64,000 nucleotides of DNA, taken from the NCBI GenBank assembly GCA_964187785.1, contig OZ076409.1:22508001-22572000 (forward strand). Reading direction: 5' to 3'. This DNA comes from Amphiscolops sp. MND2022 (taxonomy: Eukaryota). Positions 27,486-64,000 of this stretch are shown here, in pieces. Position 1 is the first letter of the stretch; each line of letters starts with the position of its first letter. The translations under genes and the position numbers were made by a program. The notes under the pieces were generated by a model. That model was not told the origin of the DNA and searched no databases. It was given only the letters and a program-made list of their open reading frames with translations.

Positions 27486-27527
27486 CTCTTCTCTTGTCGA
27501 TTGAACTCAGTTCCCAAAGTCACAGAA

Positions 27528-27860: not shown

Positions 27861-27862
27861 AA

Positions 27863-34753: not shown

Positions 34754-35690
34754 GTTCGCATCACAAAACATTGTCAGTGTTCCGAGGCTACATTATAACT
34801 GCTGATCATTTTAATGATCTACGTTATTTTTAGCTGAGTCAACCGGTAAATTTTTCTATTGTTTCTTCAACATGAAGAATTTTTCACGGGTTTGCAAGTA
34901 TAGAAGGCAAGAGATTTGCTTCAAGTATGCTTAAACAGTTCGAGTTTTTGCTGCCAAAGCATTATCTTATTAGGAAACGTTTATCGAATTTTTTAAAGCA
35001 CCCCAAATTGCTTTCAACTGTCGGACATTTTAAGTTGGCTGATTCGTTTTGAGTGAAGGGCCAGATTTATATTATAGGCTGTTAGAAGCTTGTCTTTCGC
35101 CTTCAAAAAGAGGCGCGTTTTTTGTACGTGCCCAATGTATTTTCAACTTGTCTGGAATTAAACTTTGTCGTATGTAAGTTTGCAGGAACAACCCTTGTCA
35201 TGCCAGCATGATGGAATTATAATCTACTAAATATCTGTAATGTAAATACTATGTCTTATGTACTTAGATATGGGCAATATGAAGTCATATAATACGAGCC
35301 ATGGTTGTGCACAACTCTACGTTACTTGTACTTAATCCCATTTCCCCCTCTTGAGTTTGAGCTACCTATTTAACTAATATTGAGCACTCTAGTTCCGGTG
35401 TCCGCAATTATGATCATGCTTACAGCTAAAAGTGCTACACTCAAAAAAGTGGGTTGTCACGACAAAGTGAGAATAGTTTTTCCGGCCATACTGGCCCGAC
35501 GGACAGAAAAGTGATGAAATTCTAAGTTACTTCGTAAGCTCCCGCCTCAGGGCGACCGTCGTGACAGATCCTCATCTCGTAATCATCGATAATAATTTAT
35601 GCGACCCGTAAACAGGAAAGTTCAACCTTTTCTCATCCACTAGACTAGTTACTGAAAAATCACGCATAAATTGGTGCCTTTAATGAAAGT

Positions 35691-35994
35691 TCATCGCAAA
35701 TCCATCAGCGGATTTTGTTGGTGACATCAGTTACCATTTTACTATAATTCATCGCAAATCCATCAGCGGATTTGCTAGCAGCATCACTCAACGAATTTCT
35801 ACAAGCTCATCGCGAATCCATCAGCGGGTTTGCAAACAATTTTTATATGGGACTTAGCTATCTATTTACATCGTGAATCCATCAGCGGATTTCTCGGGAT
35901 TTGAAATTTGTTAGAACTCATCTTGAAACCATCGCTGGTTTCTGATATAATGCTTTTTACACGAAACACATCGCAAGCTCATCAGCAAACTTGC
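35691..35994 (+). repeat. Array of six hairpin repeats with dissimilar spacers
   Basis: TCATCGCAAATCCATCAGCGGATTTG-like units at 35691, 35749, 35807, 35868, 35918 and 35968. Confidence 0.85.
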
Positions 35995-41800: not shown

Positions 41801-44055
41801 ACGCGTGTGATTATGTCATTCAGTTCAATTTTGTCATAGCACACATCCCAGGGGCACAAAACACAGCTGCCGACTATTTGTCCCGATTAGAAGCAGATCC
41901 GAAGGACAAATTGGTGATGAAAATTCGTGAAGATGTACAGACACTACCAATAGAAATCAATGTCCAATCCGCAGGGGTGTCGCAAGAAGAACAAATCTTC
42001 TACACCAATGACGACGATGAGACAGAAGAACAGTTTTGGGCAAGAAAAGAAGCAATCAGGAAAAATCCAGCAACTGATGAGCCCACTGTTACTATACAAA
42101 CTCTGTCAACAAATCTGGTCAAACAACACCCCGATATACAAGTCCGATTGAGGAAAACGAACCAGATCATTATCGAGCAATCCAAAGATGCGGTACTACA
42201 ACAATTGAAAGCAAAACTGCTTCATGACGAGTATTCAGAAAATCTACTGCACCAGGATGCCCGATATAGACATTACGCAAACAATCTGGAACGAATTGTA
42301 CTAAAGGACGAAATCCTGACAAGGCAATATTTCGATGAAACAGGAAATGTTAAAAACCATCAAATTTTACTCCCGCAACATTTACTCCAGGAATTGCTCC
42401 AATCTCTTCACGGGACAGCGCATAAACATCCCGGGATTTCAAAAATGCTGCAGGAAATTCGACAGAGATATTACTACCCTAGCATGGCTAAACACGTCAA
42501 AAAGTGGGTAGAAGGGTGCGAACAATGTGCCAGAGACAAAAGAGTCCCTAATGCAACGATCACACCTGAGCTGCTCAACTTGCCCGAATGGGACCTTGGA
42601 CCTGAAGACGCCATGCAAATCGACCTATTGCCGAATCTTCCCCCAAGTGGAGGGTATGAAAATGTCCTAACAGCAATTGACGTGTTTTCCAGATACTTGT
42701 TCGCATATCCTCTTACGGACTCATCAGCGATCAATGTGGCGAAAGCGCTCATTGATATCATGACCAAGCATGTATATCTGCCAACAACCCTTATTACTGA
42801 TAAAGGAACTGCATTTACTTCTACAATTATCGCGGAGGTTACGCAGATTTTGGGCATCACACTCAAATGTGCAACGACAAAGCACCCGCAAACAATTGGG
42901 AAATTAGAGCGGACCCATGCCTCATTAAAGACGAATCTCAAAATGGCATGCGGGGAATACCGCCGACAATGGCATAAGTACTTGCCATTAGCAGTACTTA
43001 ATCATAATACTAAATATCATGCCAGCATTGGTTGTGAACCAACAAGGGTATTCCCTGGCAGAATTCCCTATAATATTCTAGATCACAAGCTTGGAAATAA
43101 TCCAAACGAAAAAATCAGCCCTACAACCGAATTTGTTGAAGAAATCCAAAACCGGACAAAAATCCTCTTTGACAAAACGAAGCAGAACATTATGCAGTCG
43201 TATATCAAGTACAAAGAATATTACGACCGTAAAGCAAAAGCTGCTCCACTAAAGGAGAACGAATACTGTTTTGTCTTACAACCGAAAGCGGACAATCAAG
43301 GATCAAAAATTCCTTTCCGTGATTACCGTTGGGTTGGACCATTTGTAGTCCAAAAAGTTTTGCCAAATGAAAACTATATAGTACGACGCATCAATACGAA
43401 CAAAACTCAAATTTTGCATCGCATTCGTCTCAAGAAGTTCGTCCCCAATCAACCGCTTGAGGATAATTTCCGAGAACAACAGCTGCAACCAGACGAAGAA
43501 ATCGTCATTCCGCAAGATGAATTATACGTCATAACGTGGGAAACAGATTTTGGCGAGCAGCTAATTACACGAGGCAACGAGCCTATTCCGACTAGCGTGC
43601 CGAATGGCGAACAACCGAATGCGGCGCAACCGAATACAAGTGACGCACACGAGAATGAAGTGGATTATGTAATCACGAGTGATAAATCAAATCTTGCCGA
43701 TCGTGCGTCGCATAGCCGGAATGAACGATTAATTGATGACGTCACTACAAGAAATGAAGCTAGTGAACAGTCTAGAAATGAAGAACCTGATTGGCCGAAT
43801 CCGGCCATTTCCCCAAAAAGCCACGAAAAATCTTTGCCGGATACGGCAGAAAGCCCAAAAGACAAGGAAATTTTCCCATATGAAAATTTGCGAACCGAAA
43901 CTGATGCACAAAAATCTCCAAGAAGGGGGGATGATATTATCGTGCCCGAAATATCTGAAAACGATGCTAGAAATGAAAGTCTGAGCCCTAGAGGAGGGAA
44001 ATATAACCTCAGGCCTAACCCTAACCCAAACTACTCAGAAGACTACAGATATTAG
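38849..44055 (+). CDS. pol: Element C Pol (PR, RT, RNase H, IN); one frameshift near 39600
   Basis: PR LIDTGA; RT LVDLRKIN, KLDCSQAY, QYVDD; RH TDAS, KEFLAI, TDNK, NTAADYLSR; IN HGTAHKHPG..CEQC, IDLL / TDKG / LERTH, GPF. Confidence 0.95.
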
Positions 44056-44298
44056 AGAAAATTAAATTCGGCTCAGGAAATCAGCCCTGAACTGTTTTAT
44101 TCTCTTCTCTTTTACTTTTCTTTTTACTAGTCCCATGCAGCAGTATCTTTTGAATAAATAATGGGACACTTGGACGATCCCTTACAAAGAAAATAAATAC
44201 GGGATCAGAAAAATCGAGAGCAACAAAATGAAATAAATAATACAAACAGAAAATCAACAAAGTTTACAGTCTGTAAGTACATAAATACATATGTACAA

Positions 44299-47200
44299 TT
44301 AGCTCTTAGAACCACCAGCAGAAGATTCACCAAGGACAGACGAAGCTCTACCCCGGGAACAACTCTTTTCCATCCGCCTCCGCTTACTATCACTGGGTGG
44401 CCTCACAGCAGGAGCATCAGGCACAGAAGAAGTATCAGCGAAAGTGGGACTTCTAAAATGGAATTCTGACCCGGCGAGAACAGAGCGATAAGAAGTGACG
44501 AGAGTCTTGTAAATTGCTGAACGGCCGAAGCTGTCTACAAAGGTCCACGGGTCGTAATCGGCAGTGAAGGCAGTCTGTCCAAACGTCGAAGACAATTCGA
44601 AGAATTTCTCGAGACGAGACTCAGAACAGCAGGCAACCAGAGAATCAGGCACTGTTGACAGATAACTTTGACAAGGCAAGATGACGTCCGCTAAACGAGA
44701 CTGAAGCCCCTTTGTGTCAATCTTGCCCAAAGAAACAGGAGGATACTCGGGACTCACAGAAGTGATGCAGAGGCAACTCAGTTTGAACAGATAACATAGA
44801 TGCTCATGTGTGTGGAGGAACTCCAATCCCATGAAGAAGTCAATGAGATCAGGAGGATCGCAGGAGGAGCCGAACTCAGAAGAATGGTTGGCTCGGAGGT
44901 AATCCAATAGGGCAACGTACTCGTCCCGGCAAACTGACTCATTGGACGCTGAAACCCAGGAACGCAGTTGGAAAGTGGAATACAGACGGTCAAAATGCCG
45001 CAAAGCAATTTCTACGGGCCTCCTGAAGAGGATATGCGGATCAAACGCAGCCAGTCCTTTGATGAGGTCAGATCCGAGCTCGGAGTGTTGGAGTACTCCG
45101 GACAACAAGAACTTGATGAACTCCCTCGCACTCTTCACAAAGTCTGATTTTGCACTTTCAGCAGTCTTGTCGATCGCTGCCTTACTAGACTTCTTGTTGA
45201 AATGAAGCCCCGCTGCCTTCAAGTTGCTTGCACTGGTCACTTTACTGGCAATCTTGAGCCGTACCAGGAAATCTTCATCACTCATAGGCTTGCCCTGACT
45301 GATTCGGAAGTCCATCAACAGGAACCAAGCGCTTTCCAGAGGCACAGTGTCAGGCTGGTAGATGCGGAAGCAAAGACGATTGATATACTTGCACATCTCT
45401 CCACAAAGGAAGAAGGTAGCATCTCGCCTCTGACCCAAATTGATGACGAAACTAGTGACATCTAAAACACAGAATCTGAAGGTCCCTAAAAGGACGGCAG
45501 ACCAAAGTGACCCTACCAAACTAGAAATACTCACAATCGCTGACCAGGCGTTGGAACAGCTCCAGTTTGACAGTGAAGAAACTGTCCATGATCAGGGACC
45601 ACTCGAAACTCTGGACCTGTGGAAAGATATGATGTAAATTTGAAACGATGACCCTACCTATGCTTATGAAAAGAGACGTCCTCTAGGACTCTCTTAAAAA
45701 GACAGATAGTTTTGTGAATAATAACCTTGTTATGGACCCCTTGATTCTCTTGTCGGCGTGAATGCACAGTGAAGTAGCGCAGGATCGACTTCCACTTCTT
45801 CAATAGATCGCGGCACAGATCAGGTATTTTGGTTATTTCCAGTGTGCAAGTTGTGATAGCCTAAACAAAACGATTTAAAAATGGGAGCCCTAACTGTCGG
45901 TGACTACCTCCGCCCTTCACCAATATTATGCAGAACAAATTTGCAAAATAGACTTACTCGGACAAGTTCAGTCGAATCGGTGACCCAGTCCTCAGATAAG
46001 CAACCTCCAAGCGAGACCAGAAGACATTGAAGGACAGAGAACATGTCTATGTGCCCGAAGACGCTGTAGTTTACCTTGTGCATCAAGGTCCTCAAGTCGA
46101 GCGACTCAAACCGGAAGCAACTTTGGATCCCACGTGGGTAGGAGGGATGCTGGTCCACTGTCCTTATCAGGTCAACGGCACATCCAGATATCGCGACCAC
46201 ATCGGGAGCGGTAGAAATGGCAGACAACAATCGTGATAGGGAGCCCATCTCCTCAGTGAGCCCGACGCCAGAAAGTCCACTTCGACAGACGAAGATGCGA
46301 CAAAGCTTCGCACCCTTCCAAAATCGGAGAGACATCAAGCGGTTGGCCCCTCTCTTCTCGAACTCAATCCCATAGTGCTGGGAAGCGATGATTTGCTCTG
46401 CCACGTCTTCCATCATGCAGTTGAAGACGTGTTGGAAAATGGCCTGAAACGGAACGAAACTCGGATGATCATACGGCCTTACCATTACAAGCTACCCTTA
46501 CGCTACGAATGGTTCTATGATGAAATAAACGAGTGAACTTACCATGATGTGGTCTTCACTCCAGTCGAAATCCTGGAAGACTGATTGGAATCCAGTATAG
46601 CTCCCTGCTCTATCCCACAACCTGCGGAGGATAGCTATGTTGCCTGAGTCCTGGACGAAATCTCCCAAGAGGCAAATCTGGGCCTGCAATCGCGATTGAG
46701 GTGTTACAGGAGCCGAAGAGTGTCCCTTCAAGTAATCCTCGTAAAAAGGATGTCTCTCGCCAACGTCAACAAGTACTGTATGGATGAATCTGGGAAGCTC
46801 TTGCGCAAGGTCGGATTTGTTGAGGATTTTGCCATCCCTTCCTCGAACTCTGTGCTGGACTTTCCCTGACACGTCATCAACTGTCTTGAGGTGCTCAAAC
46901 CGCCACCTCTGGTCTCGGCGAAGGTGTTTCTCGGTCCTGTGGTGACGTAAGATTTCCACAGTGCCTTTAGTCTTTATGCTAAAGTTTTTCTTGCACATGT
47001 GGCACCACACCATGTAAGGGTTATGTAACGGATCGGCTGGGCCAGAAATGAAGGATCTAGTCCATGCTATCTTGGAGAAGAACTCCTCACGCATAGGCAC
47101 ACCCCGCCTTGGCATCCTCTTGCTCTTACTTTTCCTGGCTGAGACAACTGCCTGACGGGACTTCTGGGTAGGAGATTGACCGCGAAGCTCAGACAAAGTA

Positions 47201-48558
47201 CAGTCCAGGCTGCTCTTCTCCTGCAATTCAGTCTCTCCCTCAGTCGTGTTATGTGGCAGCCCTGATTGTGAGGCTGTAGAGAGATTTTCAGGAGCAGTTT
47301 TATTATAAACTCTGTCAATCAAGAGCCTTTCCATGGAACTGTCACTATCTTCGAGATAGGAGAGACCACTGACATCCTGGAGTGTGCTCAGGTCAAGTTG
47401 TGGACTGGGCTGAGAACCAAGATCGACAGAAAGCTCGTCGGAGCTGGACCCAGCTTGGCGATTGGATCCTGGGGAAGGAGCTCGGGCTCGCGTCCGGAAC
47501 TTCTCAGTCCGTGAAGGGGCAGTCACGGGAGTTCCTTTTACTGCTCCAATTACCATTCTCTCCATGGTGGTACAAGTCATATTGATCGCTTCGTCAGTGA
47601 GAACCCGAAGCAGGTGATAGACCTGCGGCTCTGTGAAGGCTACAACCCTCTGTCCAACCGGGAACGTGTAGGGGTCTTCGGCCTCAAAATACTGTTTGAA
47701 GGTGGCTCTACTGCGTCCTGATAAATTTCGCAGAACTTCTTCTTGTGGCTGAGGATTAAACCGAGAAGTCCCTGGTGGTCCTGGATCGTGTATTTCTGAT
47801 CCTGAGTCTTCTTGAGTCTCTGACGCTGACCCCGTTCCAAAAGGGACGCTCGCGTACAAGAGGGGAATTTCAGACTGACTGGTAGTATCAACAGCCTGGG
47901 TGGTGTCACTGTGGTCCACTGGAGCGGTGAAATGTCCTGCTCCACCGAGGAGTGGAGGGGGCTCATGGACAGAAGATGAGGCTTCATCATCTGACTGCAG
48001 GAAAGAAACTGCAGATGTATCGTGGCTACGATTCTGGGCAAGTTGCAGCTCAGGGAAACGAGACTGCGACTGCGGCGCTACTGACAGTGAGGACTCAAGT
48101 TGTGAAATGCTGGTAACTTCTGTTCCAGGCTGCTCTAAGGGTGTCGGAGTGCTAGTTCTCACTTGAATAGGAACGTGATCCACGTCTGGGACAACTGGGT
48201 CTTGTGCCGGAGACGGCTCTTCTTCCGTAGGGCTGGCAGGATTTGTGTCAGTCAACCCCTGTGAGACTTCCATACGTTGGACCATCTCGTCTGCATACGC
48301 TGTGACATCAACGTTGCTTTCATTGCTGAAAGGAGAGTCAGCAGTCAACTGTTGCGCTTGGCCGAGGAATGTTCTTATTGGGGGAAACGGAGGTGGAGAA
48401 GGCGTACTGCTGGGCATTGAGATGGGTAAAGGACGTTGAGGAAGCGCAGTGGAATTACCAGTTGTGGTAATGCTTTGAATTTGTGGTTCGTCGACGTTCT
48501 GTTGTTCTAAACAGAAGGAGATGAAATTTGGCGGTAAGCTTCCTTGAAAGAAATCCAT
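44299..48558 (-). CDS. Antisense five-exon gene (~1293 aa): low-complexity N-terminus, BED/C2H2-like zinc finger and hAT-transposase-like body
   Basis: Exons 48558-46543, 46443-45958, 45860-45726, 45616-45535 and 45461-44299. GT-AG introns of 99, 97, 109 and 73 bp in compatible phases (0,0,0,1) give one stop-free ORF. Zn finger WCHMCKKNFSIKTKGTVEILRHHRTEKH; hAT-like LLKKWKSILRYF and LCYLFKLSCLCI. Confidence 0.75.
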
Positions 48559-49603
48559 TCTACCGCATTAGAAAACTTCCGGAAGTACTTTGAAAAATTG
48601 AACAAAACGTGTTATCACGTGTTTACTGATGGATACAGGAAGCATCTTGTGAACAAATTTAGCCCTGATCAAGTTAAATTAAGTTCAAAACCAAAGCAAA
48701 CCAACCTTCAACTGAAGACATTCTGTCCTGCTTTGCCTTTTACTGTCGAACCAATCAAGCTCAGGAGGTGTGGAATCTAGCCGGACTCGGACCAAGGACA
48801 GGTCCCGGGAATACTTCAAAGAGGAAGAAGGACGCTGTTGAAGAGATTAAGAAGAGTGGAGAAAACTGTCCGGTAGAGGATATCAGATGAAGAAGACAAA
48901 GTAAAATAATTGGAATTGAATTGGAATTAAAATGGGTTAATGGAATTAGAAGTTGGAGTTCGTGGCTGAAGAAAGTTTATCAGACTAATATTATTTAGTT
49001 ATTTACATATTTATTATGTACATGAAGTCTGCCAGCGAAATGTACAAAGAACTTTGTTATTTACAGCTTACTTAGTTAGTTGCCGATTCCGGCCGTTTGA
49101 CTTGTTGCACTTTTTTATTTCGTTCAGTTAACTTAGTTACCGCTAGTTAAAAAATCCGCCATTTTGAATTATTCAGATTTATTATTTTCGCCATTTTATT
49201 ATTTAATTTTTCATTTTATCAGAGCTTAACTCTGATTGGCTGAAGCCATGTTGAAAGAATTTAATGGCGCGTGTTATTAATTGATCCGAAGCAAGCCGTT
49301 AATTACCCACTTGAAGAGAAGATATTTGATATCAACAAATTAAGTGCTGCTTACACCCACTTTGATGATGGCTCGTATGAAGGGCAAACACCTACTTAAT
49401 CGGGGCCGCCAACCCCGTTTAGGAATTTCATTCAGGAAAGTTTACGATGAATCGGGGCAATCAACCTGAGATTCTCCCGCTAAATTGGAAACCTCGGGAA
49501 AAGGCCTAACTCGGAATTTGAGGAGGCAACAAGCTCATTCTGATTTCAAACTCGCTCACGACAAGTTGGCCGGCAAATCTCCAAAATTGCGAAAAAACTA
49601 ATA

Positions 49604-50383
49604 ATGGAAAGATTTAATAAAGCGAGACAACTCTTTGGTTCTTTGGAATTCAGTTCTGACTCATCGAGAGACTCTGTAATCTACATCAGCAGTGATGAAG
49701 AAACCTCTGACGGATGGGACTCAGACTGGTCTACGGACACAGAAGAGATGGTGAGGAGGATTGAAACTCAAGTCCAAGCTGAGCCAATTCCCATAGCCGG
49801 CAGAAGGATGACGACGGCGAGCGACGAACCTGGTCCTAGCTCTGTGCCTTCAGACGCGCAAACTACACCGAAGCTGGACAAAACCTACTTCGACGAGAAA
49901 CTATGCTATGCTCCGTCTAGAGGCAACACGAAGAGGAGAATAGAATTATGCAAGACGATTCTGCCTGTGTTAGAGTCGCCGCTTTCGCCCCCCTCTCATG
50001 AGAGAGGGCCGTCTATGGATACGCCGGTGATACAACCCGAAAGTAGTGGGTTCCATGCTTCTTTCCACATACAAAATGCGTTGCCTTACACTGATATCAG
50101 CTCCCAAAGGTGCACAAGCTGTATAGTTTGTGGAAAATCTGTGGACGAAATAAAGTCCATAAAGATAAACAGATACATGGAAGCCTCAACTCCAAAGAGC
50201 GAACCCGCTTACATCACAGCTCTCAGAAAAGAAGCCTACATCAATTGTCTTAATGCAGGCAGTCTTCTTTTCATTGCACCCGCTGTGTCGCAGGCTGCCG
50301 CCTGTGACGGCACAAGGATTACAACAACAGCTGTTGGCCAGGATGTGGCCCCAGGAACTCTCCCTACTATTAAAGTAAACTAA
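49604..50383 (+). CDS. Element C 3' accessory ORF (259 aa) ending inside the 3' LTR
   Basis: Intact ATG-TAA ORF; acidic Ser-rich N-terminus (VIYISSDEE..DSDWSTD); CTSCIVCGK cluster; the last ~32 codons are in the LTR. Confidence 0.6.
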   Translation: MERFNKARQLFGSLEFSSDSSRDSVIYISSDEETSDGWDSDWSTDTEEMVRRIETQVQAEPIPIAGRRMTTASDEPGPSSVPSDAQTTPKLDKTYFDEKLCYAPSRGNTKRRIELCKTILPVLESPLSPPSHERGPSMDTPVIQPESSGFHASFHIQNALPYTDISSQRCTSCIVCGKSVDEIKSIKINRYMEASTPKSEPAYITALRKEAYINCLNAGSLLFIAPAVSQAAACDGTRITTTAVGQDVAPGTLPTIKVN

Positions 50384-52016
50384 AACTTTCTCTTAAACTT
50401 TCACGTTGCTCATGTATTTTGTTGCCATATTATTTTAGAAAATAGCCAAAAAAGGCCGTACTGGGACGTATTCCCTTATTACCAAAACTTAGAATTATTG
50501 CACTTGTTGATTATTTATGGTCAACCTTAAATGGTCTTGAATGTTATTTGTATATTAGTCTGTTAACATAGATTGTGTTGTGTTGTTGTATTATCAATGC
50601 AATGTAGTAATAATCAAAGATTATAGCAAGCAACTTAGAGAAAGTACGGAAACGAGTTCAAATGGACTCCTGTACTTTCTTGCCAACGCCACTTGCGCTC
50701 ACCCAATTTGCCAATCAGAGGCCTTCATTTTCGTGTGCTTTATTCTCTTTTGCCAATTACGGCCTTTGTACAAACCGGACGAAAGTGCTATTAATGCCGC
50801 TCAGGCAGTCGGCCTAATCCGGCTATTCAGTCCGCCATAAACAAAGCACTTGTGATTGATGCTAATTTCATGTAATGATATTTAGTTAATAGTTAGCTTT
50901 GTTAATCATGAAGTACCAATCTGAAGTGTTAATTGATGTTTTGTTGTACCATTAACAAATAGTTATCCAATTTGTTCTAAAATAGCTGTTGCATGAAATC
51001 TGATTTTATTGCCTTATCAGGCCTTTTGCCATTGTACCCATGAAAGGTATTTAGACTAAACATGTTTGTTGTGCTGCCACGTGCTAAAGTATGTGCACTT
51101 ACATCAACAAATACCTGTTCAATGAAAAAATTTTGCCAAATATGTAAACGATGCTAACGGTTGAATGATTGTTCCTTTGATGTATAATATTTGGAATGGA
51201 TAGCGTTCATCCCGTGACCATCAAAAATGCAGTCATATGATATTGTCTTAGTCAAAGAATGTAAAGAATGAGAGTGTCACTCTTTCGGGGGTATAAATAA
51301 CTGTGCCTTTGAGAGAGGAGACACTTCTTAATTTGCTCTCTTCTGAAAAAGACTATCATATTAGTACAAACGGTTTCACTGTTATTTTCGAGATATAATC
51401 TAATTCAATTTTATACTCGAAGTTTTCCTTATGCCTACTACAAGAAAACAAAAGAAGGCTAGAAAGTCCAGAGGACTAGAGATCCTTTCTGATATCGAAA
51501 ATCTAGATATGATGTTAGGAGGCGATCGTTATAATGGAACTGAAAGAGAAAGGAGTTCAGACAGTAACTCCGTTAGAAGGAGAGAAAGTGTCATAGGTAA
51601 TAACTTGGACAATGAGGGCGAAAGCCTATTTTCAAATTGCAGAAATGATGAACCTAGGACAAGTGCCGATCTTGGCCAATATTCAGCTGAAGCAAACTCA
51701 CTAGCTGAGATAAACAGGTTGTCTAGCGAATTGAACTCTAGGATATCCCGTGAGATGGATGAAATGATGAGTAATGTTGATACGCTGATCCAAAGGGCCA
51801 TTAATGAGGCTATTAGCAGTCAAGTATTGCCTCAAATACAGAATGTCATAATGGGCGGATCAGGCCGGGAGACCAGAAGGGGATGGGAAGTCCCAGTTGA
51901 GAGATCGGAAGCAAATGCCGAGGAACAGCGAATTCCAAACGCTAAGGCCGACTGTAGAAATGAACAGAATGATGGATACCAATCCGGTGGACCATCTGCC
52001 CGTCACGTTCATGACA
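50286..52016 (+). repeat. Element C 3' LTR
   Basis: Direct repeat of the 5' LTR; accounts for the duplicated ORFs 50580-50840 and 51431-52021. Confidence 0.95.
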
Positions 52017-54023
52017 CTTGATATGCTTTTATTTAATCGGGTACTTCGAACCAATGTACTTCTCATTTTCTGAACGTAAAACACATCACCAATTCATCGC
52101 CATACTAGAGGAAGCAGAGAAAATAGGAAAGTACAACTCAAATTCATCAATAAAAGAGCGATTGTACTGGATTTACCTATATGAGTGTAAACACATCGAT
52201 TATCTCACCGTCAGATCAGATATGTGCTGGAAATAGCAGGTATAGGAGGAAGTCCATCCTACTTTCATCGTGAACCCAACTAGTGCTGAATTTGAATGAA
52301 TATAGTTGGGAATTCATCGTTTTCACATCGTATGCTAATTTGGTGCTAGATTTTAGTAGATACTGACTAGATTTCATCACTTATCCATCCGTGTACTTGA
52401 GATAGTGTCCAATATTGATTGCATTGCTTGGAAAATCATCGTTTTACCATCGTTTAATGCATTTTGCTTTAATTTGACTCAGTTTCAGTGCAATAACTAT
52501 CATTTTCATCTTGTTTCTATCTCCATAGTAACCATTGTTATGTGCAGGCAATTACAGAGCTGTAAAACTTGTGATTCATTGTTAATTAGTAGATTTAGCA
52601 TATGAGATGGCCATCCTGCGGCAATTCGCACCACTGGTAGTCACGTGACTTACCAATTGACACCAGCTGGTATAAGCAATGAGAACGAAGGTTGGTAAGA
52701 ATTGAGTTTTACCAACCAGCCAAAACGCGCGAATTGCTGTAGTTTGGACCGCCATTATTGATTAGTAAGAGAGAGATTGCGACTAGTTACAGTTCAGTTG
52801 ATATTTCTACGTTTAGAACTTCATCTAAAGTACATCCAAAATCATACAAACCAGCTAACCAGTGACTGGTCGCTTTTCTACAGCTTACCTCCAGTATACC
52901 GATGAGTTTGTGATGATTTCCTTGTAATCCTTTTCTGTTTCGCTTGTCTACTTGTAACTGATCAACTTTTGCTGGTTGTTCATCGAAAACCCATCTCTGT
53001 TCAAAATAGTGAATTAGAGATTCTAACAAACTAAAATTGAATCAAAATAATCTTCGAATAGACAATAAAATCCAGTCTCCGCTCAATTTCACCTTTAACC
53101 TTCTTTGTGAGTCTAAACTTCGAAACGGAAAAGTTATAGATTCTTGTTCTGAAGACAACATCTTCACACAATCCGTCATGACTGAGACAAATTTTTGTCG
53201 ATTCTGATTCCAACGATAACTCTGACATTTCTTCCCAGTTAACTGAAATAAAGGAAAATTATGAGAGGAAGATTAACGAATTACAATCAGAATTTAGTCA
53301 ACTGAAGGACCTTATGATGGCTATTATTAGTCGAACGAAAGATGACAACCCAACACGTAGCTCACAAGGTACTTCAAAGCAGCCTAGAAGTTGGCTCGAC
53401 AACACTACAAATACCACTACCCAAACTTTTAAATCAAAGGTTTCGCAGAAAGGAAAACTTATGTCAATTGAAATAAATTACCTCAATTTCCGTTCTTCAA
53501 TTCCTGAGAAAGTTGTATACTTCAAGCACAAAATTGTCTTCTTGGTTGTGCCAAAGAGTCACGAGGGTTGCAAATAAGTATATAAGTATTGCATTCAAAG
53601 AGAACCCTTTCTCTTGATACAAAATTATAAAACCTCACAAGGACGAAAAATATGAAAATATGATTTGTATATTACCGAGCGGTAAACAAGTATTTACAAA
53701 AGGTTTTACTCATTGAACTCTATACAATTTGATATTTTCTGAATGAATTTCAGATATTTTCTTGTATTATTTTCTTCAGGTAACGTGAATTGATTTTTTT
53801 TCAACCCCAAAACGATCGAAGTTGGTTGTGCAACATCTCAGCAAAATCAAATAGGATAATTAATTTGTGACTTAGTGGGCACATCAACTGTGATTAATTA
53901 ATAAAAAGTGAAAATAAATTTCACTTCCTATTTTTTTGAGAATTTTTGTCTGAAGCGAAGATTCAGACTTGATTGATGCTTTTAATTGGTGCCATCTATA
54001 GAAATCTCATATTACTGTTGTAG

Positions 54024-54178
54024 ATAATTTCAAGTCGGTCTCCGCGTTACATGACCAGCGTGGACTGGTGGGCACTTGGGGTGCTGCTCTACGAGATGGT
54101 ATGTGGCAGTACCCCCTTCAGAGCTCCCAAAAACGACGAGAAGACCCGCACAGAAATGATACTCAAGGGACGAGTCAG
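54024..54178 (+). pseudogene. Next exon of the same kinase pseudogene (subdomain IX onward)
   Basis: Acceptor ttgtag|, then IISSRSPRYMTSVDWWALGVLLYEMVCGSTP(frameshift)FRAP..EMILKGRVR, then donor cag|gt at 54179. Confidence 0.8.
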
Positions 54179-55312
54179 GTTGGCAACTCAACTTTTCATA
54201 ACATGCAAACATTGAATCTTGCATTAATTTCAGCTGTTGATGCATTAAATATTCCTCGTTGGCGTTTCGAATCCAGGGATAATGATGTGTCACAATGTCT
54301 GCTAATTATTGCTCAGTCTACAACCCTGTGACCAAGAAAACTGTCAGAATAGCTTCCGAAGTAAATCCAAGGTGTTGTAGAAACTGGACTCAATTTTTCT
54401 AGTTATCCAAGTTGTTCGTCCTCAATTCGTTTCCGATGTCTCACGTTTTCCCTCTCAAGGTATCAACATTAAAGAAGTTTAGTGCATTCTTAGATGTAAA
54501 AGTTAATGTATTTCCTTCTTTGCTCTGTATTATGATCGTCTCTTCACTATTTGTCAATACATTGTACAAAAATTTTAAACCTCAACTCACAATCTGAATT
54601 GTCACAGGTACAAAAAGAAGATTTTTTTGACTTCAAAAAACAAGAAAACTTTCAATCTAATGCATTTCCACGACAAAACGTGATCAAGTCAAGGATGTTT
54701 TGTCCTTTTTGAAGTGACATATTCTTCCTCCATTCTTCGAAAATACAAATAGCTCCAATTTGGATCTGGCATAAACTCTGTTTCAGACATATACAATCTT
54801 TGGTTCCTTCTTCATCTCTTCTTTAACATGTCTTCTTCTTCATTCCCAAACTCTCGAACTTCCCATCCACTCCTCACAGAGATGGTGACTGCCCCCATCA
54901 CCACTACTACTTTCACCACCGGTGCAACCTTTTCCATCTTCGCACACATCTGCGATTCAGTCTCTTCATCATCAACGATGACCGTCTTCACTCCTGTTCC
55001 CACAACCCTCCACAAGAAGCTGGTGCCACCACTACCCCTCTTCGGCACTAAAACACAATTCGTCAGTTGAGATCTCATCTTCATATTCGTAAGCCCCGTC
55101 ATCCGAAGCGCTATCAATTGCCCCCTGCTGAAGCTGGGTTGGTGACAAACAGAACCATCCACACAGCCGTCTACCAACTAACTAAATAAATTTACGCATT
55201 TAAACAATATGAACAATTTTTAGACTCTTTACTTTTAAAACAACTCTATGAACTTAATCAAATTGCTAAAAATAAAACTGATTTTTCTCACCTTTAATTT
55301 CTCGACGCCGCG

Positions 55313-57197
55313 TGTCGCGACCCCAAAGGTGTCACGGAATGCAAACAACAAGAGGAACGCCTGAGGAGAGAAGCAAGGAAATCGACCAGAGTAGGTCAGA
55401 AATGCCATAACAAACCTAAAAGGAAAAACCAACAAACAACCTAATATTATCTAAATAACATGTAAATGTACATTTACTACCATCGTGCTGTACCTGAAAT
55501 ACATTGATATGTAAATAATTATATAATAATAACAAGCGCAGTATTTGCTCAGTCAATCAGCCAGCGCGCTGACCGAAATTAATTCGATCAACACATCGAC
55601 TGGGGACTTGCCTCAGCGGCAGTGGTGATTTTAAATAATTCCGTCCGCATTGACCAATCAGAATCGAGCCCAGTTGATGCTATTAGTGAATTTGAGTCAA
55701 CGTCCCAGGCAGCGTAACAGTGCGACTGAAGCTGGGACGCACGCTCAGTCGCACTGCCTGAATATACTGATGCAACTAATCGATGCTAAGTTTTAAATGA
55801 AATTACACGACTTACCAAGAGTGTGTCCAATGAACACTAATTAATAAAAATTGAGTGTTATTGATGTAATTGATTCACCTCGGGTCTGAGTTGGTCTCCC
55901 AGGCAAAGTGCTAAAATTCGTAAGTAAAACGACAGCTTGGGTTGGCGACCAAAATATTTGAGTAATATATAACATTTGGTTATCTCATTTGCGAAGCTGT
56001 CCTCTTTAGACGTACTGATTGATAATATGATAGTGAAATAAACCCCCAGTGCTATTATTCAACCCCACATGCATCGTTTAGTTCAATTACTGTTGAGTCA
56101 ACCACCTGGTCAACTGGCCAGACGACCCAAAATGAAACGCGTTGCCTGGCGTTCATCCAAGATTTTAATTGTTTGTTTCAGCCTAAAACACCGATTAACG
56201 GCTATAGTTGTCTGATTAAAAGAAAATGAGCGCTGTTAATTTGTAATACCGAAGTATTTTCCAGATTTGTTTATTAGTAAAATTTGGGAACATTCGATGT
56301 AAATTTCACTTTCCTCTCCCGCTTCAGTAGCTAGATTCATGAATTTTCAGTGCCAACTTTGGTTCGGCGTCTTGAATTGGCGGGAAATGAAGAAGGAAGT
56401 AACGCGGAATCAGGACTTTGGCAGGAACTTGATTCCCACTTTTCCTTTAAATTGAGTTGACGCTGAAAGCCGAGTCCCGAGGAAGCGGACCTGATTTGGA
56501 TTTTCCTGCCTCGGATTGACGCCGAGCTGAACGAGGTGTGAATTCACGCGCGGGGTTTTTCCCGCGTGTCTAGCGGAAAGTATATATACCTGAGGCGGGT
56601 TAAGGAGAGGACCAGTTTTAAGTTGAGATTTTACGAACCGTTCACCTGTAATTTTGATAATTCTTTTCATAACGTTGTTTTTCCTAACAATTGTTGCTCT
56701 CTTAAATTGTTTGTCAATATTCACTACATTTGTACCGTCCGAAATTCGGTTACTATTTGTTTAATCAACTGTCCTTGGTTGGGGATAACTTGGAACTATT
56801 AATCTTCAAAAAATACTTAATTCAATTACTCCAAGCCTGAACACTTTCTTGAAAATGCCTGAAAAGACTCAAAAACGGAAATTAAGGAGTGATCAGAGTA
56901 CCATTCAGGAAGAGATTGAGAATTACAATCACCCAGATGACGAAAATGTCAGTCTTTCTGAACAGGATTTCTGAGATATTTCTAGCAAAATTGAAAAACG
57001 TTTGTCAAAACGGTTGAGAGATACTGAGTTCGGACAAAGAGAGATCTTGAAGTTGATCGAGAACCTCGCGTCCAAAGTAGATAGCCTTTCAGACCCAGCC
57101 TCTGAACAGTGTAGTTTCGCCTTGCGTTGCGCATTTGACACCGATCCGGTGAATGACTCAGAAAACGAAAATGCTATTAGGAACGTTGATTCCAACA
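55313..57197 (+). repeat. Element D 5' LTR (~1.9 kb)
   Basis: The first 114 bp match 63887-64000. The end is inferred from CCAACA followed by PBS TGGTGACAGAAG, as in element C. Confidence 0.75.
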
Positions 57198-58620
57198 TGG
57201 TGACAGAAGTTTCCGCGAACCAGCAAGACAACAACCACCAAAGATCATCAAGCCTGCCGCCTCCAAACCAGAGGTATCCTGATGACTTCATAGATAAGCT
57301 TCTACGATCGTTGCAAACGGCAACCACCCACAACACTGGAATTCCTAGGCTACCCAAAGCCATGTCCACCACGATGCCCAAATTCGATGGGAAAACAGAC
57401 AAATTCGAACACTTCGAGGATCTCTTTCAAACGAGCCTGAAAGTGTACCCCAACATCACAGAAAAGGAGAAGATCCACTACTTTCACTCCCTCCTCCGGT
57501 GCGAAGCCCTACAAACATTTAGAAATATGACTGATGCCACCTGTGAACACCTCAATGACATCCTTGCAGGTTTCCGCCGCCAAAATGTTCGACAACAACC
57601 TGTAGCAACGACTCGCTGCAAATTGGAAAACCTATCTTTCAATCCGAGCCAACAAACTTTCCTCGACTTCCTAGATCAGTACCAGAAGTTGGCCCAGGAA
57701 GCGTACGGAGAAGACGCCCCCTAGTTTATAGAAACCTCATTTTACGCTAAGATGTCGCCCCACCTCAAGAGGGACTTAAACCAAGCCCGACCCGAGACGG
57801 AATCCTACGAAACCATGGTACAACACCTCGAGAGGGAAATTGAACTCAACGGTTTGGCAGCGACCGACAGACCACCAATTACAGGGGTGAACAACCTCGA
57901 ACTAAGCCTACAACAACAACAAGAGAAACCTCCCAAATCAACAGGAACATGCTTCGGGTGCGGCAAGCCAGGACATTTGTTACGAAACTGTCGCAAAACC
58001 AACAGGGACAAACGATCCCAGAGAAACCAAAACCCAACTCAAACTACACCATGTGAAACATGCGGAAAAATGAGCCATGAAACCAAAGATTGCTACTCAG
58101 GAGCAAACTGGGCAAACCGCCCAACGTGGTGAAAAACACCCAAAACAACACCTCCAAACAATATCCTGATCCCTCAACAATCACAACCTACCCCAATGCA
58201 ACAGCCGCAAACTGCACCAATGTCCCAACCACCAACTGTAGCGCAATCAACAAACGAATCAAAAAACTTCTAGAGCCACGTCTTCGCTTCGGGGACTACA
58301 TCGACTACAGATATTACACGATATCTGAACCTCCGAAGAACCACGATTCTGAAATGTTTGCAGAGTGTTCCGGTGAACCATCTACCGACTGGCAGCGGAG
58401 AAGGCACATCCCGACGCCTCATAAAGTTTAACAAATCAACCCTAAACATGTAAAAATACTCGGAACGGTACTTAGAAAACCCCCAACAGTATAACTCAAC
58501 TAGACGCCCTCTCCCTCCCAGTTCCACTCCCGACACTTACATTCATGACCCAGACTACGGTTGTAACCCCTACCGCAACCCCAACTTCCCCGCGCAAAAA
58601 CAAATACAACCTTCGTAGCA
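56855..58620 (+). pseudogene. gag: Element D gag with stops, A_AAA_AAC slippery site (58261-58267) and a pol N-terminal remnant
   Basis: MPEKTQKRKLRS starts in the LTR; PKFDGKTDKFEHFEDLF..HYFHSLLR; knuckles CFGCGKPGHLLRNC and CETCGKMSHETKDC; ESKNF*; -1 frame LLEPRLRF.. and later DPDYGCNPY, homologous to element C. Confidence 0.85.
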
Positions 58621-59115
58621 ACCCACCTTCAAATTGGAAAAGAGATTATGCTTATTACGACTCTGTTGTCGTTGGCGCAAATGAATAAACTCTTAATTGG
58701 TGAAATGGTACACTTACTACCTACTTGATGGGTTACCTAAGACTAACTCAACTCCCCACAACTCAACTCCCCACAACTCAACTACAGACTCACAGGAAAA
58801 CTGAATCATGGAGCAAAGAGTATATTGATGACGCCGAATTTTGTTTTTATTTCGCTTTCTTTTTCTCTTTGTCACGCACACATAACAGCCAACGCTCTCA
58901 AAGGAGCCGTTACTATTTTTACTTCTGGAATTCAACTGTATTTTATCTGGCTGAATTTTTAACATCAATATCAACAAACCCAGTGAGATCAAGAATACAA
59001 ATCAAAATACATCAAGTCGTATAATGAAAATCAACTACAAGTTTACAATTCATGCACAACAAAGACAGAGACTATACTAAAGTTTGCAATTAAGTATCGC
59101 CAATGAAGTTTATCA

Positions 59116-62100
59116 TCAAACTCTGGGCCATCGCTCCTGAGACACACGCTTGCGAGACTTTCCAGAAATCGCCTTGCTTGAACTAGGCGAACGAGACGCG
59201 ACTTGCTGACTGCCCTTTTTCTCCTTCAGCCTTTGGGCCACATTACTGGATCCACTAACAGACGCAACAGCTTTTGATGACTGAACAGCAACACTGGAAA
59301 CTGGAGCATCAACAGAAGTCCCCTGGAGGACAGAAGACACAGCCCCAGACCCGGTTTCGACGTCTCCGACAGCAGGCAATCTATTAGTAGGAGAAGTGAC
59401 AGAGAAAACACATAGCCCAGCCCGTCGACGCCAATCGGCAACCTGCTCCATATAATAATCGTTGAAGCTGTCACGAAGGTTCCTGACACGTCCTGCCGAG
59501 TATTCACATGCAGAGAACGCCAGGGAGCAAAGGTAACATCAGACATGAAAACATGCCCGGATGGAAGATTAGCCTTCAACTCGTCGAGGCAATCCTTTGT
59601 CAACAGTTCTCCCGAGACGAAACCGCTGTCAGAGATGTACGATTCCACTGCCCGGATTGAAGACAACAGTACCTTCTCAGGAATCGCAGCTCCACTGAGT
59701 GAAACCTTCACCTCCGGATACCGAACTACCCCTGGCACAACTCCAACTGAAACTATGACGACCACCTTTGACAAATGCAGACGACACTCCAACAATCCAC
59801 TCTGCCACAGAAACGGAAACCGTCCTTGATGGTCGAGATCACTTGCCGGTTGCGTAGTCGCAAGTCAATTAACAACGACTTGAACTCGTTGGAAGCACCT
59901 TCTGCCTCCACAGAAGACAATCGCCCACACGTTTGCAGACAAGATATCAGGTCACGAAACAGAGAAACAGTATACGCCTCTTCCCCCATAGGAAGCATGT
60001 CCGGGGAAAAACAACTGAGGCTGGAAGGCAACTGAGAAATTGCGTAGGCAGACGTATTGAGAACTTTCAGGAATTCCATCAGAAATCCTTGGCATTCTCG
60101 CAGGAAACTCCGCTTGACAGCATCACCGCAACCACCCAATGCTTTGATGACTATCGGCTGACTTCTTAGGCAATCAATGTAGTACACATTAGCCCATGTC
60201 GACAACGGCCGACCAATGTATTCACTCCACTCTTCAATAGCAGGCAACTCGGACAACGTCCTCACCTTCCTCAGAAGGATCCAGTAGAAGAAACAGAACT
60301 CAGCATAATTCCGACACAATCACTTGACCCAAGTCGACAGGAGTCCTTCCACGGGGAGTAGGTGTAAGATTCTGACGTCTTCCCAATGATCTACGAGCTC
60401 CTCCAGTACGGCGCCCAAAGCAGTAAAGGGAATTTCCCGGCGTTGAACACACTGGCGAAACTCCACAAGCGCCCACAACCAGGGCTGATGAACAGCTTTG
60501 TCCAAGCGCAAAAGCAAGAACTCCAGAACTGCGAAAGGATCCAAATAGTGAGCACCGACTATACCTGCTTCCCGAACATGATCCGTGAAGACTGACGACG
60601 AATACTCCAGCAAAGAAAGAGGCACTGACCGACCATGCGACCGACACCACTCACTGAATCTATTGAACAAAGTTGAAGAGCAGCCGAACAAAGCAACAGG
60701 AGACTGCCCCTCAGCCAAGATAGATAAGACCCGCGACAGACAATGGATTTCTGCATCACAAATGCCAGCACTGTAAGGCTCCCACAAGAGGCACACCTCT
60801 CGAACACGTTCGCCAACTTGACATCGAACAATACAATTGTTTCCATTGCCCTCTTCGCGAAATAATGTACTGAATACCAAATCCTTACACCAGGACTGCA
60901 CTCGGCGAAGAATACGAGGATACAGAGTCTGACTGACAATACCAAGAGATTCAGTTTTACTCCACGTGGCCTGTGCATAGGTCGACTCGACTGGGATAGT
61001 AGCACGGAACTGGTTCCAAAGACGTCGGAGGAAGCTATGTGAACCACCACTACGGAGGAGCTCAAATAGCCCCCCACCAATGTTGCAGATGGCACATTCG
61101 AAACAACACCGACCAGAGCATCCACTTCGTCTTCTTTGAAAGGATTCTTCTTCCCCAGTGTGACAGGTGGAGTTTCTTCAATCTCGGCCTGCAATTCTGT
61201 CGAAATGGTTGCCACTTCCACAGCATCAAACCGAGGGGTGTAGAACACATCCTCATGATCCAGTCGATACCGCCGATCTTTCAAATAATGGCTCTTGCGG
61301 CTGAAATGACGCCAAATCTCAGGAGCACCACGACTCAGGAAACTGATGTCCTTCTGACATGTGGCACAATTGAAGCCATTCGGGTTCTTGTCCGACCTCT
61401 GACTCACGAATAGTTGAGGAATAGCATGAACGGCCATTTCTTTGCGCAACACGTGCCGCTCCGTCTGCCTCCTCCTTCTACGCTCATATTTTGCAAACAG
61501 TTTGCATTTCGTCTTTTCCTCATCGTCCAGTTGACCTCCTCGTCCTGGTAACTGAATGCCCTTCGATTTCAGCAACCGCACAACTTCGTCCATTTCTAAA
61601 CCACACAAACACATGACAAACCAAGCCCTACTCAGGCGATTGACGAACACAAACCAAACACATGACCGCCCACCCAAAATCACTAGACAAAAACTAAACT
61701 ACACACAATCCAACCGACCATCAAAAGAAGAGAAAACTGCACTTACGACGTGACAGAAACCTTTTTTCCACCCGCGAATGAGATCGGTCCAGTCGCACAG
61801 CTGCTTGACCATAAGCTAGAATCTGACTTGACGACAGACACAGTGCCCCGGTAGGCATTTCCGCCAGGCCAGCTAAACAACACAGGACAGTGAAAATAAC
61901 TAGCCACAGAAAACCCTACTGTACATGAAGCTCCCAGACACAAGACGACAACAATGCAATCCAATAAGGTGCAACTTTACTTTTAGCCCATTCGTTATGC
62001 AGAAAAGACTTCTCCAATCCTTCAGCAGGGCGACCATGTTGCGTGCGATCATGCTTCAACTTTGAATTACTGGACGTCATACCAGCCAGTTGGAACGGGG

Positions 62101-63008
62101 AAACATCAGACGACCCGCCAGGCAAATCACCCATAACAGTGAATACGTCCCCCTCCTGAGGTAAGGGAGTCTGCGCTAAAAACAACACGCAGTAACTACA
62201 AAGTTCTGGACCACAACAATGAAACCAATATACGAACTACCTACCTTCATCGTCTCCACCAAGGACGCCGGAGAAACCAAGTCCAGGACTGTCATCGGAG
62301 CTCAACACATCAGTGCGCACCCGCTTTGTTGAGCCACTCGGAACAGCTGAGAGCAGACGCTTAGTGCGACGTGAACCGACATTGCCAACAGCCGAAGAAG
62401 GGGTGAAATCCTCATCACTTGGATCATCTGAGAGCCCTAAGGAAACAGAGGTAGATGAAATGACGCATCTGCATCAAAACTGTTAACTAGCAAATAACAA
62501 ATAGCTAAGCAACCTACCTGATTGTTCCAATAGATAATCCAGTTCATGGCGAGCATCACAGCTGGAAGAATGGACAGACCCAGCATCGTCGTCACGACGA
62601 GCAGAACTGTCTCCAGGGGGAGCAACACCGGAATTCCTATCACTTTCGTCACCAGAACTGTCGTCTGTATCAATCTCGCCTAAACCAGCAACTTTACGGG
62701 ACACAGGAACTAGCAGGGACCACATCGCCCAATTCACCCTCAAACTGAATTTCTCTTCTCTCTTCCACAACGACCAACCGATCGTCAGGAGGCGACTCAA
62801 CACCAGCACATACCTCATCGACAGCCCTACTAACAGCACTCTGTTCTGTTGCCCCGGGGACATCAACAATTTGACTAGCCTCAGTTTCCACAGTCGCATC
62901 TCCTGTATCGACTCGCTTCCCTCCCAGAGACTCACCCTCACTTTCCAAAATTCCAATCTGCTGCTACTGAGCAAAACGGACAGCATCCTCATCAGTAGAA
63001 TCTGTCAT
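59116..63008 (-). pseudogene. Element D antisense gene, a frameshifted homologue of the element C hAT-like gene
   Basis: FNCATCQKDISFLSRGAPEIWRHFSRKSHYLKDRRYRLDH; FLRECQGFLMEFL..SSLSCFSPDML..LFRDL..NEFKSLLIDLR; YPEV..ESYIS..FAPW. These are collinear with the C protein. Acidic N-terminus from ATG 63008; probable 5' introns (donors ~62518, ~62245, ~61746). Confidence 0.7.
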
Positions 63009-63339
63009 TTTTATCCGTTCAAAGCAATCTAAAAAAGGAAAAATAATCACCAAGATAAACCAACAGAAGACGTGGCGTAAAACCAACGAAACTATTAATA
63101 TGAAGTATTATTATTATGACGTAATGAAAATCATTCAGTCTGCCAGCTGAAAACTTTCTCAATCACGCGAGCGGCGTGAACAATATACGAGTAAAGGAAT
63201 TACCAGTTAAACGTTTCAACTACTCCCATTGCAGTTGACTACACAACTACCTTTATTACACAGCTAACTCTTAAATTGCTAGCAGCCTATTATTTCACAT
63301 AAGTTACTACTATTCACGCAATTACAATCAGAAGAAACA

Positions 63340-63984
63340 ATGCAGACACCAGAATTTGATTTATCTAGCGACTGCTTTATTCTGGATCGCGATGAGGACG
63401 AATACCTGAAATTACCTTAAGCTCAATCTACTCCTACTTTCAAACTATCTCTGCAGAACGGCTCCCCCCAGCCGAAATACATGATCTATATGAGATTATA
63501 AAGACTGAAGAAGAACATTTGGTTTTGCATCATGATACAGCACCAGTGACTATTCTATCTACGGCAAACGAAGACGGCCCGACTATTCGACGGTATACCA
63601 GGGACAACCCTGTGATTCAAGACGGCATAGAGATCAGTCCACCCCGAAATTACCGAGAGATGGACTGTTGGTTATTCGCCCCTAATAATGGAACAGTCAG
63701 CCAGCCCCATTTCGAGCCATTCTAGCTCAATTGGCTACTTTTCGGGGAGCGATTGGACGACCGACTTGTCTTGGCTATCATACGACTCTTTGATACAATC
63801 CGTTTTCCAACCGCCTATTTCATCCCCGTTCAGGCCGATTTCTCCACTTCCTCCCATACCGGACGTCCCTCAAGAAAGCCGGGGACTGTCGCGACCCCAA
63901 AGGTGTTACGGAATGCAAACAACAAAAGGAACGCCTGAAGAGAGAAGCAAGGAAATCGACCAGAGTAGGTCAGAAATGCCATAA
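63340..63984 (+). pseudogene. Element D 3' sense accessory ORF, disrupted, ending inside the 3' LTR
   Basis: ORF fragments from ATG 63340 to TAA 63984 cross the LTR edge at 63887; motif SDWTTD compares with SDWSTD in the element C ORF. Confidence 0.45.
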
Positions 63985-64000
63985 CAAACCTAAAAGGGAA
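63887..64000 (+). repeat. Element D 3' LTR (start only)
   Basis: Direct repeat of the sequence starting at 55313. Confidence 0.9.

Follow-up and report, generated by a model that had tools for sequence, protein, structure and literature searches.

The closest described counterparts of the gene considered here are antisense open reading frames (aORFs) of the aORF-3R type in plant and fungal Ty3/Gypsy retrotransposons, for which the accessible parts of two sources name Grande gene23, RIRE2, Retand TRP28 (PF04195) and Boty brtn (PMC7264820, PMC11963269); brtn is also treated in PMC8365987, in the portion available. According to the accessible part of PMC11963269, 97% of Retand clusters have TRP28 antisense ORFs, and some members are non-autonomous. 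A 2020 review described the origin of aORFs as unknown, reported no similarity to other transposons and regarded a nested-transposon origin as unsupported (PMC7264820). We analysed 64,000 nucleotides of Amphiscolops sp. MND2022 (assembly GCA_964187785.1, contig OZ076409.1, positions 22,508,001 to 22,572,000, forward strand; this whole stretch is the window, and coordinates below count from its first letter). It carries two Ty3/Gypsy-type elements, C and D, each with an antisense zinc-finger gene (the cargo) between pol and the 3′ long terminal repeat (LTR). The cargo resembles aORF-3R in position, in antisense orientation and in being kept across diverged families, and likewise in a proposed nuclear or DNA-binding regulatory role and in non-autonomous derivatives that retain the ORF. 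It differs in that a hAT transposase is suggested by its fold and by the order of its domains, with no match to PF04195, and in that it has several predicted spliceosomal introns at shifting positions, whereas the word intron is absent from the accessible text of PMC11963269.

The cargo genes and their recognisable parts are as follows.
63008 to 59116, minus strand: antisense cargo gene of D, hAT-transposase-like, five predicted exons.
61288 to 61368, minus strand: zinc finger of D, C-x2-C-x16-H-x5-H, BED-like.
60600 to 60890, minus strand: RNase H-like core of D, its fold taken from the structure model of the D-type homologue P0124; coordinates approximate.
59852 to 60130, minus strand: helical block of D, leading into the hAT-dimerisation-like C-terminal region.
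44299 to 48558, minus strand: antisense cargo gene of C, its five examined exon pieces free of stops.

A preliminary description, made from the letters of the window, had recognised an antisense zinc-finger gene in both elements, and both finger strings that it quoted are present, the one in C at 46924-47004 with the same C-x2-C-x16-H-x5-H spacing as in D. That spacing also occurs in 14 of 35 D-family ORFs. In both elements of the C/D lineage within the window (2/2), the antisense ORF stands downstream of pol and ahead of the 3′ LTR. The cargo proteins had been said to align only in patches; instead they are colinear over 623 pairs, 138 of them identical (22.2%, with junctions set to X), and the alignment of the reconstructed proteins is significant, scoring 254 where 300 shuffles averaged 57.6 and never exceeded 86. 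Unjoined ORF pieces gave z values of 13.9, 5.7 and 7.8 (200 shuffles), while the C-terminal piece by itself was not significant (z 2.4, 200 shuffles). Profile comparison of C-type with D-type sequences matched the finger block (probability 96%, E 2.6e-9), the core (E 1.6e-4) and the C-terminal part (E 5.6e-5). The kinship is missed by plain tblastn with its low-complexity filter and by a first C-type profile; a broader profile recovers the D cargo (E 0.0009).

The cargo belongs to a family of 662 representatives at 50% identity (E up to 0.001), which includes clusters with 125, 99, 84, 79 and 78 near-identical members. The last exon of C has 177 homologue clusters, the nearest (97%) with 125 members, and the middle piece of D has 35; D-type clusters are mostly small, and the four closest to D have 1-6 members. 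In a tree of 44 rows the D-type pair falls outside all 42 C-type rows on a branch of ~3 changes per site, a placement that comes from a short block of 93 columns with a midpoint root (112 of 131 alignment rows cover the block and were thinned to 42, to which two D-type rows were added). Element context comes from two copies, C and D, and statements about the family from unnamed protein ORFs; metagenome and viral contigs returned no loci with cargo relatives. That the cargo is shared and old is supported because all three profile comparisons are significant, position and orientation are the same, and the D-type branch is long. The earlier suggestion of an old capture retained through deep divergence fits these data.

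The identity of the cargo, which the preliminary description had left unidentified, is the new element. It is very probably of hAT transposase origin. Three individually weaker lines, namely Atlas neighbours, fold matches and domain order, converge to suggest this. First, 23 of the 30 Atlas language-model neighbours of the C-terminus of the C cargo carry PF05699 Dimer_Tnp_hAT (best 0.93), a region that is yet without a Pfam or fold match. For the D-type homologue P0124, the neighbours have FAM200/ZBED5 RNase-like and DUF4371 domains (best 0.84), which is no more than a lead, and FAM200/GTF2IRD2/ZNF862-like clusters are among the neighbours of the cargo. Second, in the P0124 structure model (built from 18 sequences, pLDDT 57) strands and helices are arranged as in RNase H (b1-b2-b3-aA-b4-aB-b5), with further helices after them. 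When the model was compared with 350,542 chains by Foldseek, Hermes took all of the first ten places (E 0.005-0.04, probability 0.38-0.94), with a match that spans ~500 columns, and the top viral fold match is a hAT-family protein (E 0.016). VIA-align superposes model residues 91-319 on Hermes 142-450 over 168 residues (Z 6.3, rmsd 5.4); across alignments with Hermes (Z 6.3-6.8, rmsd 3.6-5.4, 111-168 residues aligned) the match reaches past the core on both sides. Third, the succession of finger, core, insertion and C-terminal region agrees with that of hAT transposases as given in the accessible part of PMC6027215. The C finger matches zf-BED weakly (E 0.16) and the D finger does not match it. 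An RNase H-like core with a long helical insertion is thus predicted in the cargo with moderate confidence.

The cargo has very probably lost catalysis too, in that the inferred Hermes D/D/E positions have no conserved acid. These positions (D180, D248 and E572) were placed from strand ends and range offsets rather than by residue-level superposition; D180 lies near P0124 model residue 129 by the offset of model 91-219 to Hermes 142-270. In the strand-1 columns 124-129, D or E occurs in 0 of 16 sequences, although column 130, next to the inferred D180 position, has E in 8 of 16. Columns 186-187, after strand 4, have an acid in at most 1 of 16. No dominant E follows the last helix, the best column reaching 31 of 124. 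Other residues are kept: F226, L228, C230, L231, C232 and P241 are found in 115-123 of 123-127 C-type sequences, and several C-terminal columns are at least 90% conserved over 124-127 sequences. These conserved columns, the large clusters of near-identical members and the stop-free exon pieces of C indicate that the cargo fold is under constraint. Our verdict is that the cargo works like a Gypsy antisense accessory gene and is built like a hAT transposase, and is not an active hAT.

Set against hAT transposases such as Hermes or those of FAM200/ZBED5/ZNF862 type, the cargo is similar in its order of a BED-like finger, a helical domain, the RNase H-like core with its insertion and a putative dimerisation-like end, and Hermes is its best fold match. 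It lacks conserved acids at the inferred D180, D248 and E572 and has no terminal inverted repeat (TIR) with 8-bp target-site duplication (TSD), it lies below Pfam detection, and it is carried within an LTR retrotransposon. Among animal Gypsy-like elements, the bdelloid GDSL/DEDDy ORF3 (PMC5408684) and planarian Burro (PMC6431247) carry accessory genes other than env, placed downstream of pol or within the polyprotein, but the accessible parts of these sources describe enzymes or env-like products and no antisense or transposase-derived cargo; the words 'intron', 'transposase' and 'hAT' are absent from the former. Movement of modules between classes is described, in the accessible text, for PMD in Gypsy, MULE and host genes (PMC5418596) and for Fanzor1 in diverse DNA transposons (PMC3627910). 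A silencing or anti-silencing role is proposed there, as it is for the cargo of C and D, but in C and D it would be a whole transposase scaffold that passed from a DNA transposon to a retrotransposon. We found no hAT-derived cargo of an LTR retrotransposon in the open literature, a scope that leaves out Repbase, Dfam, subscription journals and supplements.

The introns of C and D are all predictions from GT-AG borders and reading frame.
46542-46492, minus strand: C intron 1, 51 nt, phase 0.
45957-45861, minus strand: C intron 2, 97 nt, phase 0.
45725-45617, minus strand: C intron 3, 109 nt, phase 0.
45534-45462, minus strand: C intron 4, 73 nt, phase 1.
62437 to 62517, minus strand: D intron 1, 81 nt, phase 1, GT-AG.
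62176 to 62244, minus strand: D intron 2, 69 nt, phase 1.
61873 to 61980, minus strand: D intron 3, 108 nt, phase 1; alternative donor at 61919.
61596 to 61746, minus strand: D intron 4, 151 nt, phase 1; the preceding exon is conserved in the homologue P0140.

The predicted introns have 35-44% GC against 49-55% in exons, and each preserves the frame; the first splice model of C is the least certain, its acceptor having a weak pyrimidine tract. GT-AG segments located in this way lie all upstream of the finger in D and all downstream of it in C, as had been described. D-type ORFs run unbroken across C intron site 1 in 19 of 35 cases, site 2 in 7 of 35 and site 3 in 5 of 35, the remaining ones not reaching or not matching the anchor. 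Site 4 is crossed unbroken by 6 of 18 aligned D-type rows; in D itself it falls within a deletion of ~34 codons. Variation is also seen within the C type. Nine of 268 C-type ORFs reach exon 4; six of the nine have an insert of 23-51 residues at intron 4, two (P0161 and P0227) lack it and one is unscorable. In P0050 and P0204, exons 3 and 4 of C are joined directly, P0050 with a gap of 0 while keeping the intron-4 insert. P0050, with 11 members, comes from a 539-kb contig and is genomic, while P0204, P0161 and P0227 could be transcripts. At the level of sequence, then, intron presence and absence differ between the C and D types. Intron gain or loss, which had been proposed, is supported at the four downstream sites of C because these lie in homologous sequence that D-type ORFs cross unbroken; the upstream introns of D sit in acidic low-complexity sequence that is unalignable to C and are not scorable as gain or loss.

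Two further features of the introns may be recorded. The upstream predicted introns of D (61596-62517) are all of phase 1 (4/4). On the minus strand of C, at 48560-48706, an acceptor-like AG stands one base 5′ of the cargo ATG, as at D intron 4, and the C cargo may have a 5′ intron too.

Outside the cargo, the two elements share a layout. In the lines below, PR, RT, RH and IN are protease, reverse transcriptase, RNase H and integrase.
35999 to 52016, plus strand: element C, 1728-bp LTRs, TSD CTTGA on both sides.
39568-44055, plus strand: RT-RH-IN of C pol, in Gypsy order.
55313 to beyond 64000, plus strand: element D, a decayed Ty3/Gypsy element internally deleted for PR-RT-RH-IN.
55308 to 55312, plus strand: left flank CCGCG of D, candidate 5-bp TSD, its right counterpart lying beyond the window.
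55313 to 57197, plus strand: 5′ LTR of D, 1885 bp, TG...CA, with the first 114 codons of gag inside.
57198 to 57206, plus strand: primer-binding-site (PBS)-like TGGTGACAG of D, in frame within gag and adjoining the 5′ LTR.
56855 to 58273, plus strand: gag of D, DUF1759-like core and two CCHC knuckles.
58261 to 58267, plus strand: slippery heptamer A AAA AAC (ESKN) of D, which closes gag; ESKN at 58256.
58258 to 58571, plus strand: N-terminal pol remnant of D, including DPDYG at 58546-58560, from tblastn against C pol.
58572 to 58587, no strand: junction of the internal deletion of D; PR, RT, RH and IN gone, ~4.8 kb relative to C.
58587 to 58658, plus strand: surviving pol end of D (integrase tail), from tblastn against C pol.
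63341 to 63984, plus strand: 3′ sense ORF of D, broken; no detectable kinship to that of C.
63872 to 63886, plus strand: purine-rich tract of D, like a polypurine tract (PPT), adjoining the 3′ LTR.
63887 to 64000, plus strand: 3′ LTR of D, cut by the window end.

The LTRs of C are 98.6% identical over 1732 nt and have TG...CA ends, and its pol gives a weak PR match followed by RVT_1, RT_RNaseH and rve (Pfam), in PR-RT-RH-IN order. Most of the layout given in the preliminary description is borne out. The LTRs of C and D have no similarity (best blastn E 0.11), while the same PBS-like TGGTGACAG stands immediately 3′ of the 5′ LTR in both. The gag ATG lies within the LTR in each, with 195 codons there in C and 114 in D. 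The two-knuckle gags align over 278 pairs with 37.4% identity, and the ESKN slippery site A AAA AAC recurs at the gag end of C (38838). A -1 frameshift at the heptamer would join gag to pol in D. D is assigned to Ty3/Gypsy on this gag kinship (37%) and on both ends of pol. The 3′ sense ORF is common to C and D in position only: the two have no significant similarity, and neither matched a Pfam family.

The LTR-encoded gag N-termini are unusually long, the gag start spanning 37141-37726 in C and 56855-57197 in D, and the 3′ LTR of C also contains an open gag-start ORF (51404-52021). The 3′ sense ORF of C (49604-50383) extends into its LTR. At 50256-50285, 5′ of the 3′ LTR, C is pyrimidine-rich rather than polypurine despite its youth and perfect TSD. 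A 27-residue match between the 3′ ORF of C and the antisense strand of the D LTR (z 5.6, one of 128 ORFs) was rejected as chance.

The D copy is dead, with three premature stops in gag (at 56972, 57722 and 58130) and ~7 breaks in the cargo: a stop near 62965 and frameshifts near 62700, 61070-61100, 60380, 59850 and 59540, besides the ~34 codons missing near 60317. One cargo frameshift sits in a G run, where the homologue P0138 shifts likewise, and some of the breaks may reflect mutational hotspots or faults in the assembly. The pol of D had been reported as lost just after DPDYG. The loss is confirmed, with its junction near 58572-58587, but it is an internal deletion because the last 23 pol residues persist (58587-58655, 61% identical to C pol 1473-1495, E 1.9e-4). 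The N-terminus of C pol matches D with E 1.6e-6 and 0.004, and the next best of the other C pol matches in D has E 0.37 (tblastn). The preliminary description had suggested that D might be mobilised in trans. We think it doubtful that D stands for a non-autonomous family moved in this way after losing pol, a matter of the pol deletion alone and independent of the origin of the cargo. D keeps its cis signals without pol (PBS-like sequence, PPT-like tract and LTR ends, all intact), and pol-less gag-plus-cargo derivatives occur elsewhere, in Retand (PMC11963269) and TelKA2n (PMC5408684), as the accessible parts of these sources describe. However, a single copy was seen; its LTRs differ by 4 mismatches (110 of 114 nt identical over the portion within the window), and these, with the gag stops and cargo breaks, fit decay after insertion, so that the deletion may be private. 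D-type clusters, mostly small and with 1-6 members among the four closest, also speak against a mobile family. The pol deletion is ordinary unless further copies share the junction.

The explanation we consider probable is that an old nested hAT insertion was domesticated by the Gypsy lineage and became an accessory gene whose product binds DNA but has no catalytic role. The ancestor of C and D, within one Ty3/Gypsy lineage, would have received a hAT transposon in a single event, backwards, between pol and the 3′ LTR. Transposon ends and catalytic acids would then have decayed while the DNA-binding, oligomerising scaffold was retained. The resulting accessory protein would comprise a low-complexity N-terminus, the BED-like finger, a dead RNase H-like core, the helical insertion and a dimerisation-like C-terminus. 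Antisense transcription of the gene would start at a promoter of its own, close to the 3′ end. Antisense introns are not spliced from genomic RNA and so survive reverse transcription. The cargo gene is oriented opposite to the genomic RNA, so its introns would stay unspliced there and for this reason be kept through reverse transcription. These introns could be lost or gained singly, plausibly by recombination with cDNA of spliced antisense mRNA.

As to function, the likeliest role, at even chances, is that of an oligomeric nuclear protein that recognises specific DNA sequences and acts on chromosomal copies of its own element, activating them or countering their silencing. Alternative roles are a decoy against host hAT-derived regulators and nuclear import or targeting. 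A more elaborate version, in which the dead hAT scaffold binds the LTRs of the element (anti-silencing or activating), hundreds of subfamilies diversify with their LTRs, and introns are repeatedly and precisely lost through the element's own RT, is possible but somewhat doubtful.

Several observations weigh against an old, domesticated hAT insertion. At the sequence level, Pfam hAT domains are absent from the 25, 59 and 61 proteins scanned (as is TRP28, PF04195), and PDB sequence searches with three profiles gave nothing under E 0.4. True family members typically share 170 features in the Atlas, more than the 152-154 and 131 counted for the cargo, and the two Atlas searches amount to a single kind of evidence. 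Both cargo models are of low confidence (pLDDT 53 and 57), the C last-exon model (pLDDT 53) gave zero fold matches and no Foldseek match reaches E 0.001. The VIA Z score alone is not decisive because actin/kinase folds reach Z 7.0-7.5 on a 90-residue core, above the 6.3-6.8 of Hermes. Element context rests on two cargo copies. Identity between C and D is lower in the cargo (22%) than in gag (37%), a difference that separate captures or swapped modules would fit as well. Finally, D has an inverted repeat with matching flanks around its cargo that C does not have.
58820 to 58836, no strand: left arm of the inverted repeat, 15/17 match, enclosing the D cargo together with the right arm; perhaps a relic TIR.
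63172 to 63188, no strand: right arm; the flanking 9-mers match 7/9.

This repeat bears on the possibility that the cargo remains a DNA transposon in its own right, nested in the retroelements (a non-autonomous hAT-like one, or one with another TSD length), which inserted independently in C- and D-types at a preferred site after pol. In shuffles the repeat alone arose in 10 of 300 and the repeat with 7/9 flanks in 0 of 300, and both the excess divergence of the cargo over gag and the wholly different intron sets of C and D would fit separate insertions. The repeat criteria were, however, set after the D repeat had been seen. The young element C has no 15/17 pair, and a strict test for a TIR with adjacent 8-bp TSD around the cargo found none in C or D. 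The arms of D depart from the hAT TIR pattern (T/C)A(A/G)NG, and at 9 bp the flanks are longer than TSDs of 4-8 bp, both as given in the accessible part of PMC6027215. Both cargos lack the catalytic acids, and they have position and orientation in common. We regard independent insertion as quite unlikely. A loose TIR/TSD match in C was also seen and was rejected, as it arises from a palindrome within a repeat.

Another possibility is one old capture of a domesticated, intron-bearing host gene of hAT origin (ZBED/ZNF862/FAM200 type), serving as a mimic of, or decoy for, a regulator. The FAM200/GTF2IRD2/ZNF862-like Atlas neighbours would fit such a gene, the introns and the long low-complexity N-terminal region are gene-like, and catalysis appears lost in both deep branches. 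But C and D have zero intron positions in common, transduced host genes are usually sense-oriented (PMC7264820), and no cargo homologue of 754-2150 aa was found, which is weak evidence. We judge this origin improbable. That the cargo is not hAT-derived at all, and is instead a zinc-finger protein whose RNase H-like or actin-like domain came from elsewhere, would agree with the missing sequence-level hAT match, the low-confidence models and the higher Z of actin-like folds on the 90-residue core, but is very improbable, since Hermes tops Foldseek over ~500 columns and aligns past the core on both sides, the domain order fits hAT, and two separate regions point to hAT domains.

Domestication of a nested hAT transposase, the reading we prefer, would offer an origin for the Gypsy antisense accessory ORFs known from plants and fungi. 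On this view, domestication of transposases would be open not to hosts alone but to transposons of a different class. Since a gene with several introns is carried in reverse by a retroelement of high copy number, and its intron sites vary by subfamily, RT-mediated intron loss becomes testable in many replicates; if the reading is true, the family would be a natural many-replicate test of cDNA-mediated intron loss.

The rest of the window holds other features. Between C and D, at 54024-54179 on the plus strand, lies a host protein kinase exon (Pkinase E 5e-9) with AG and GT borders. C and D probably sit in introns of this protein kinase gene, and the spliced exon marks the host as a eukaryote. 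Element A (8483-34128, plus strand) is of Gypsy type; a profile search detected no hAT-like cargo in it, and its env-like ORF (19383-21095) matches a Monjiviricetes fusion glycoprotein (E 4.7e-11). Element B (21060-28782, minus strand) is nested in that ORF, with LTRs 98% identical and ATACC at both flanks, and includes a 24-nt tandem array at 27488-27768. Just left of C, at 35690-35930, are degenerate repeats of ~58 nt, perhaps the end of another mobile element.

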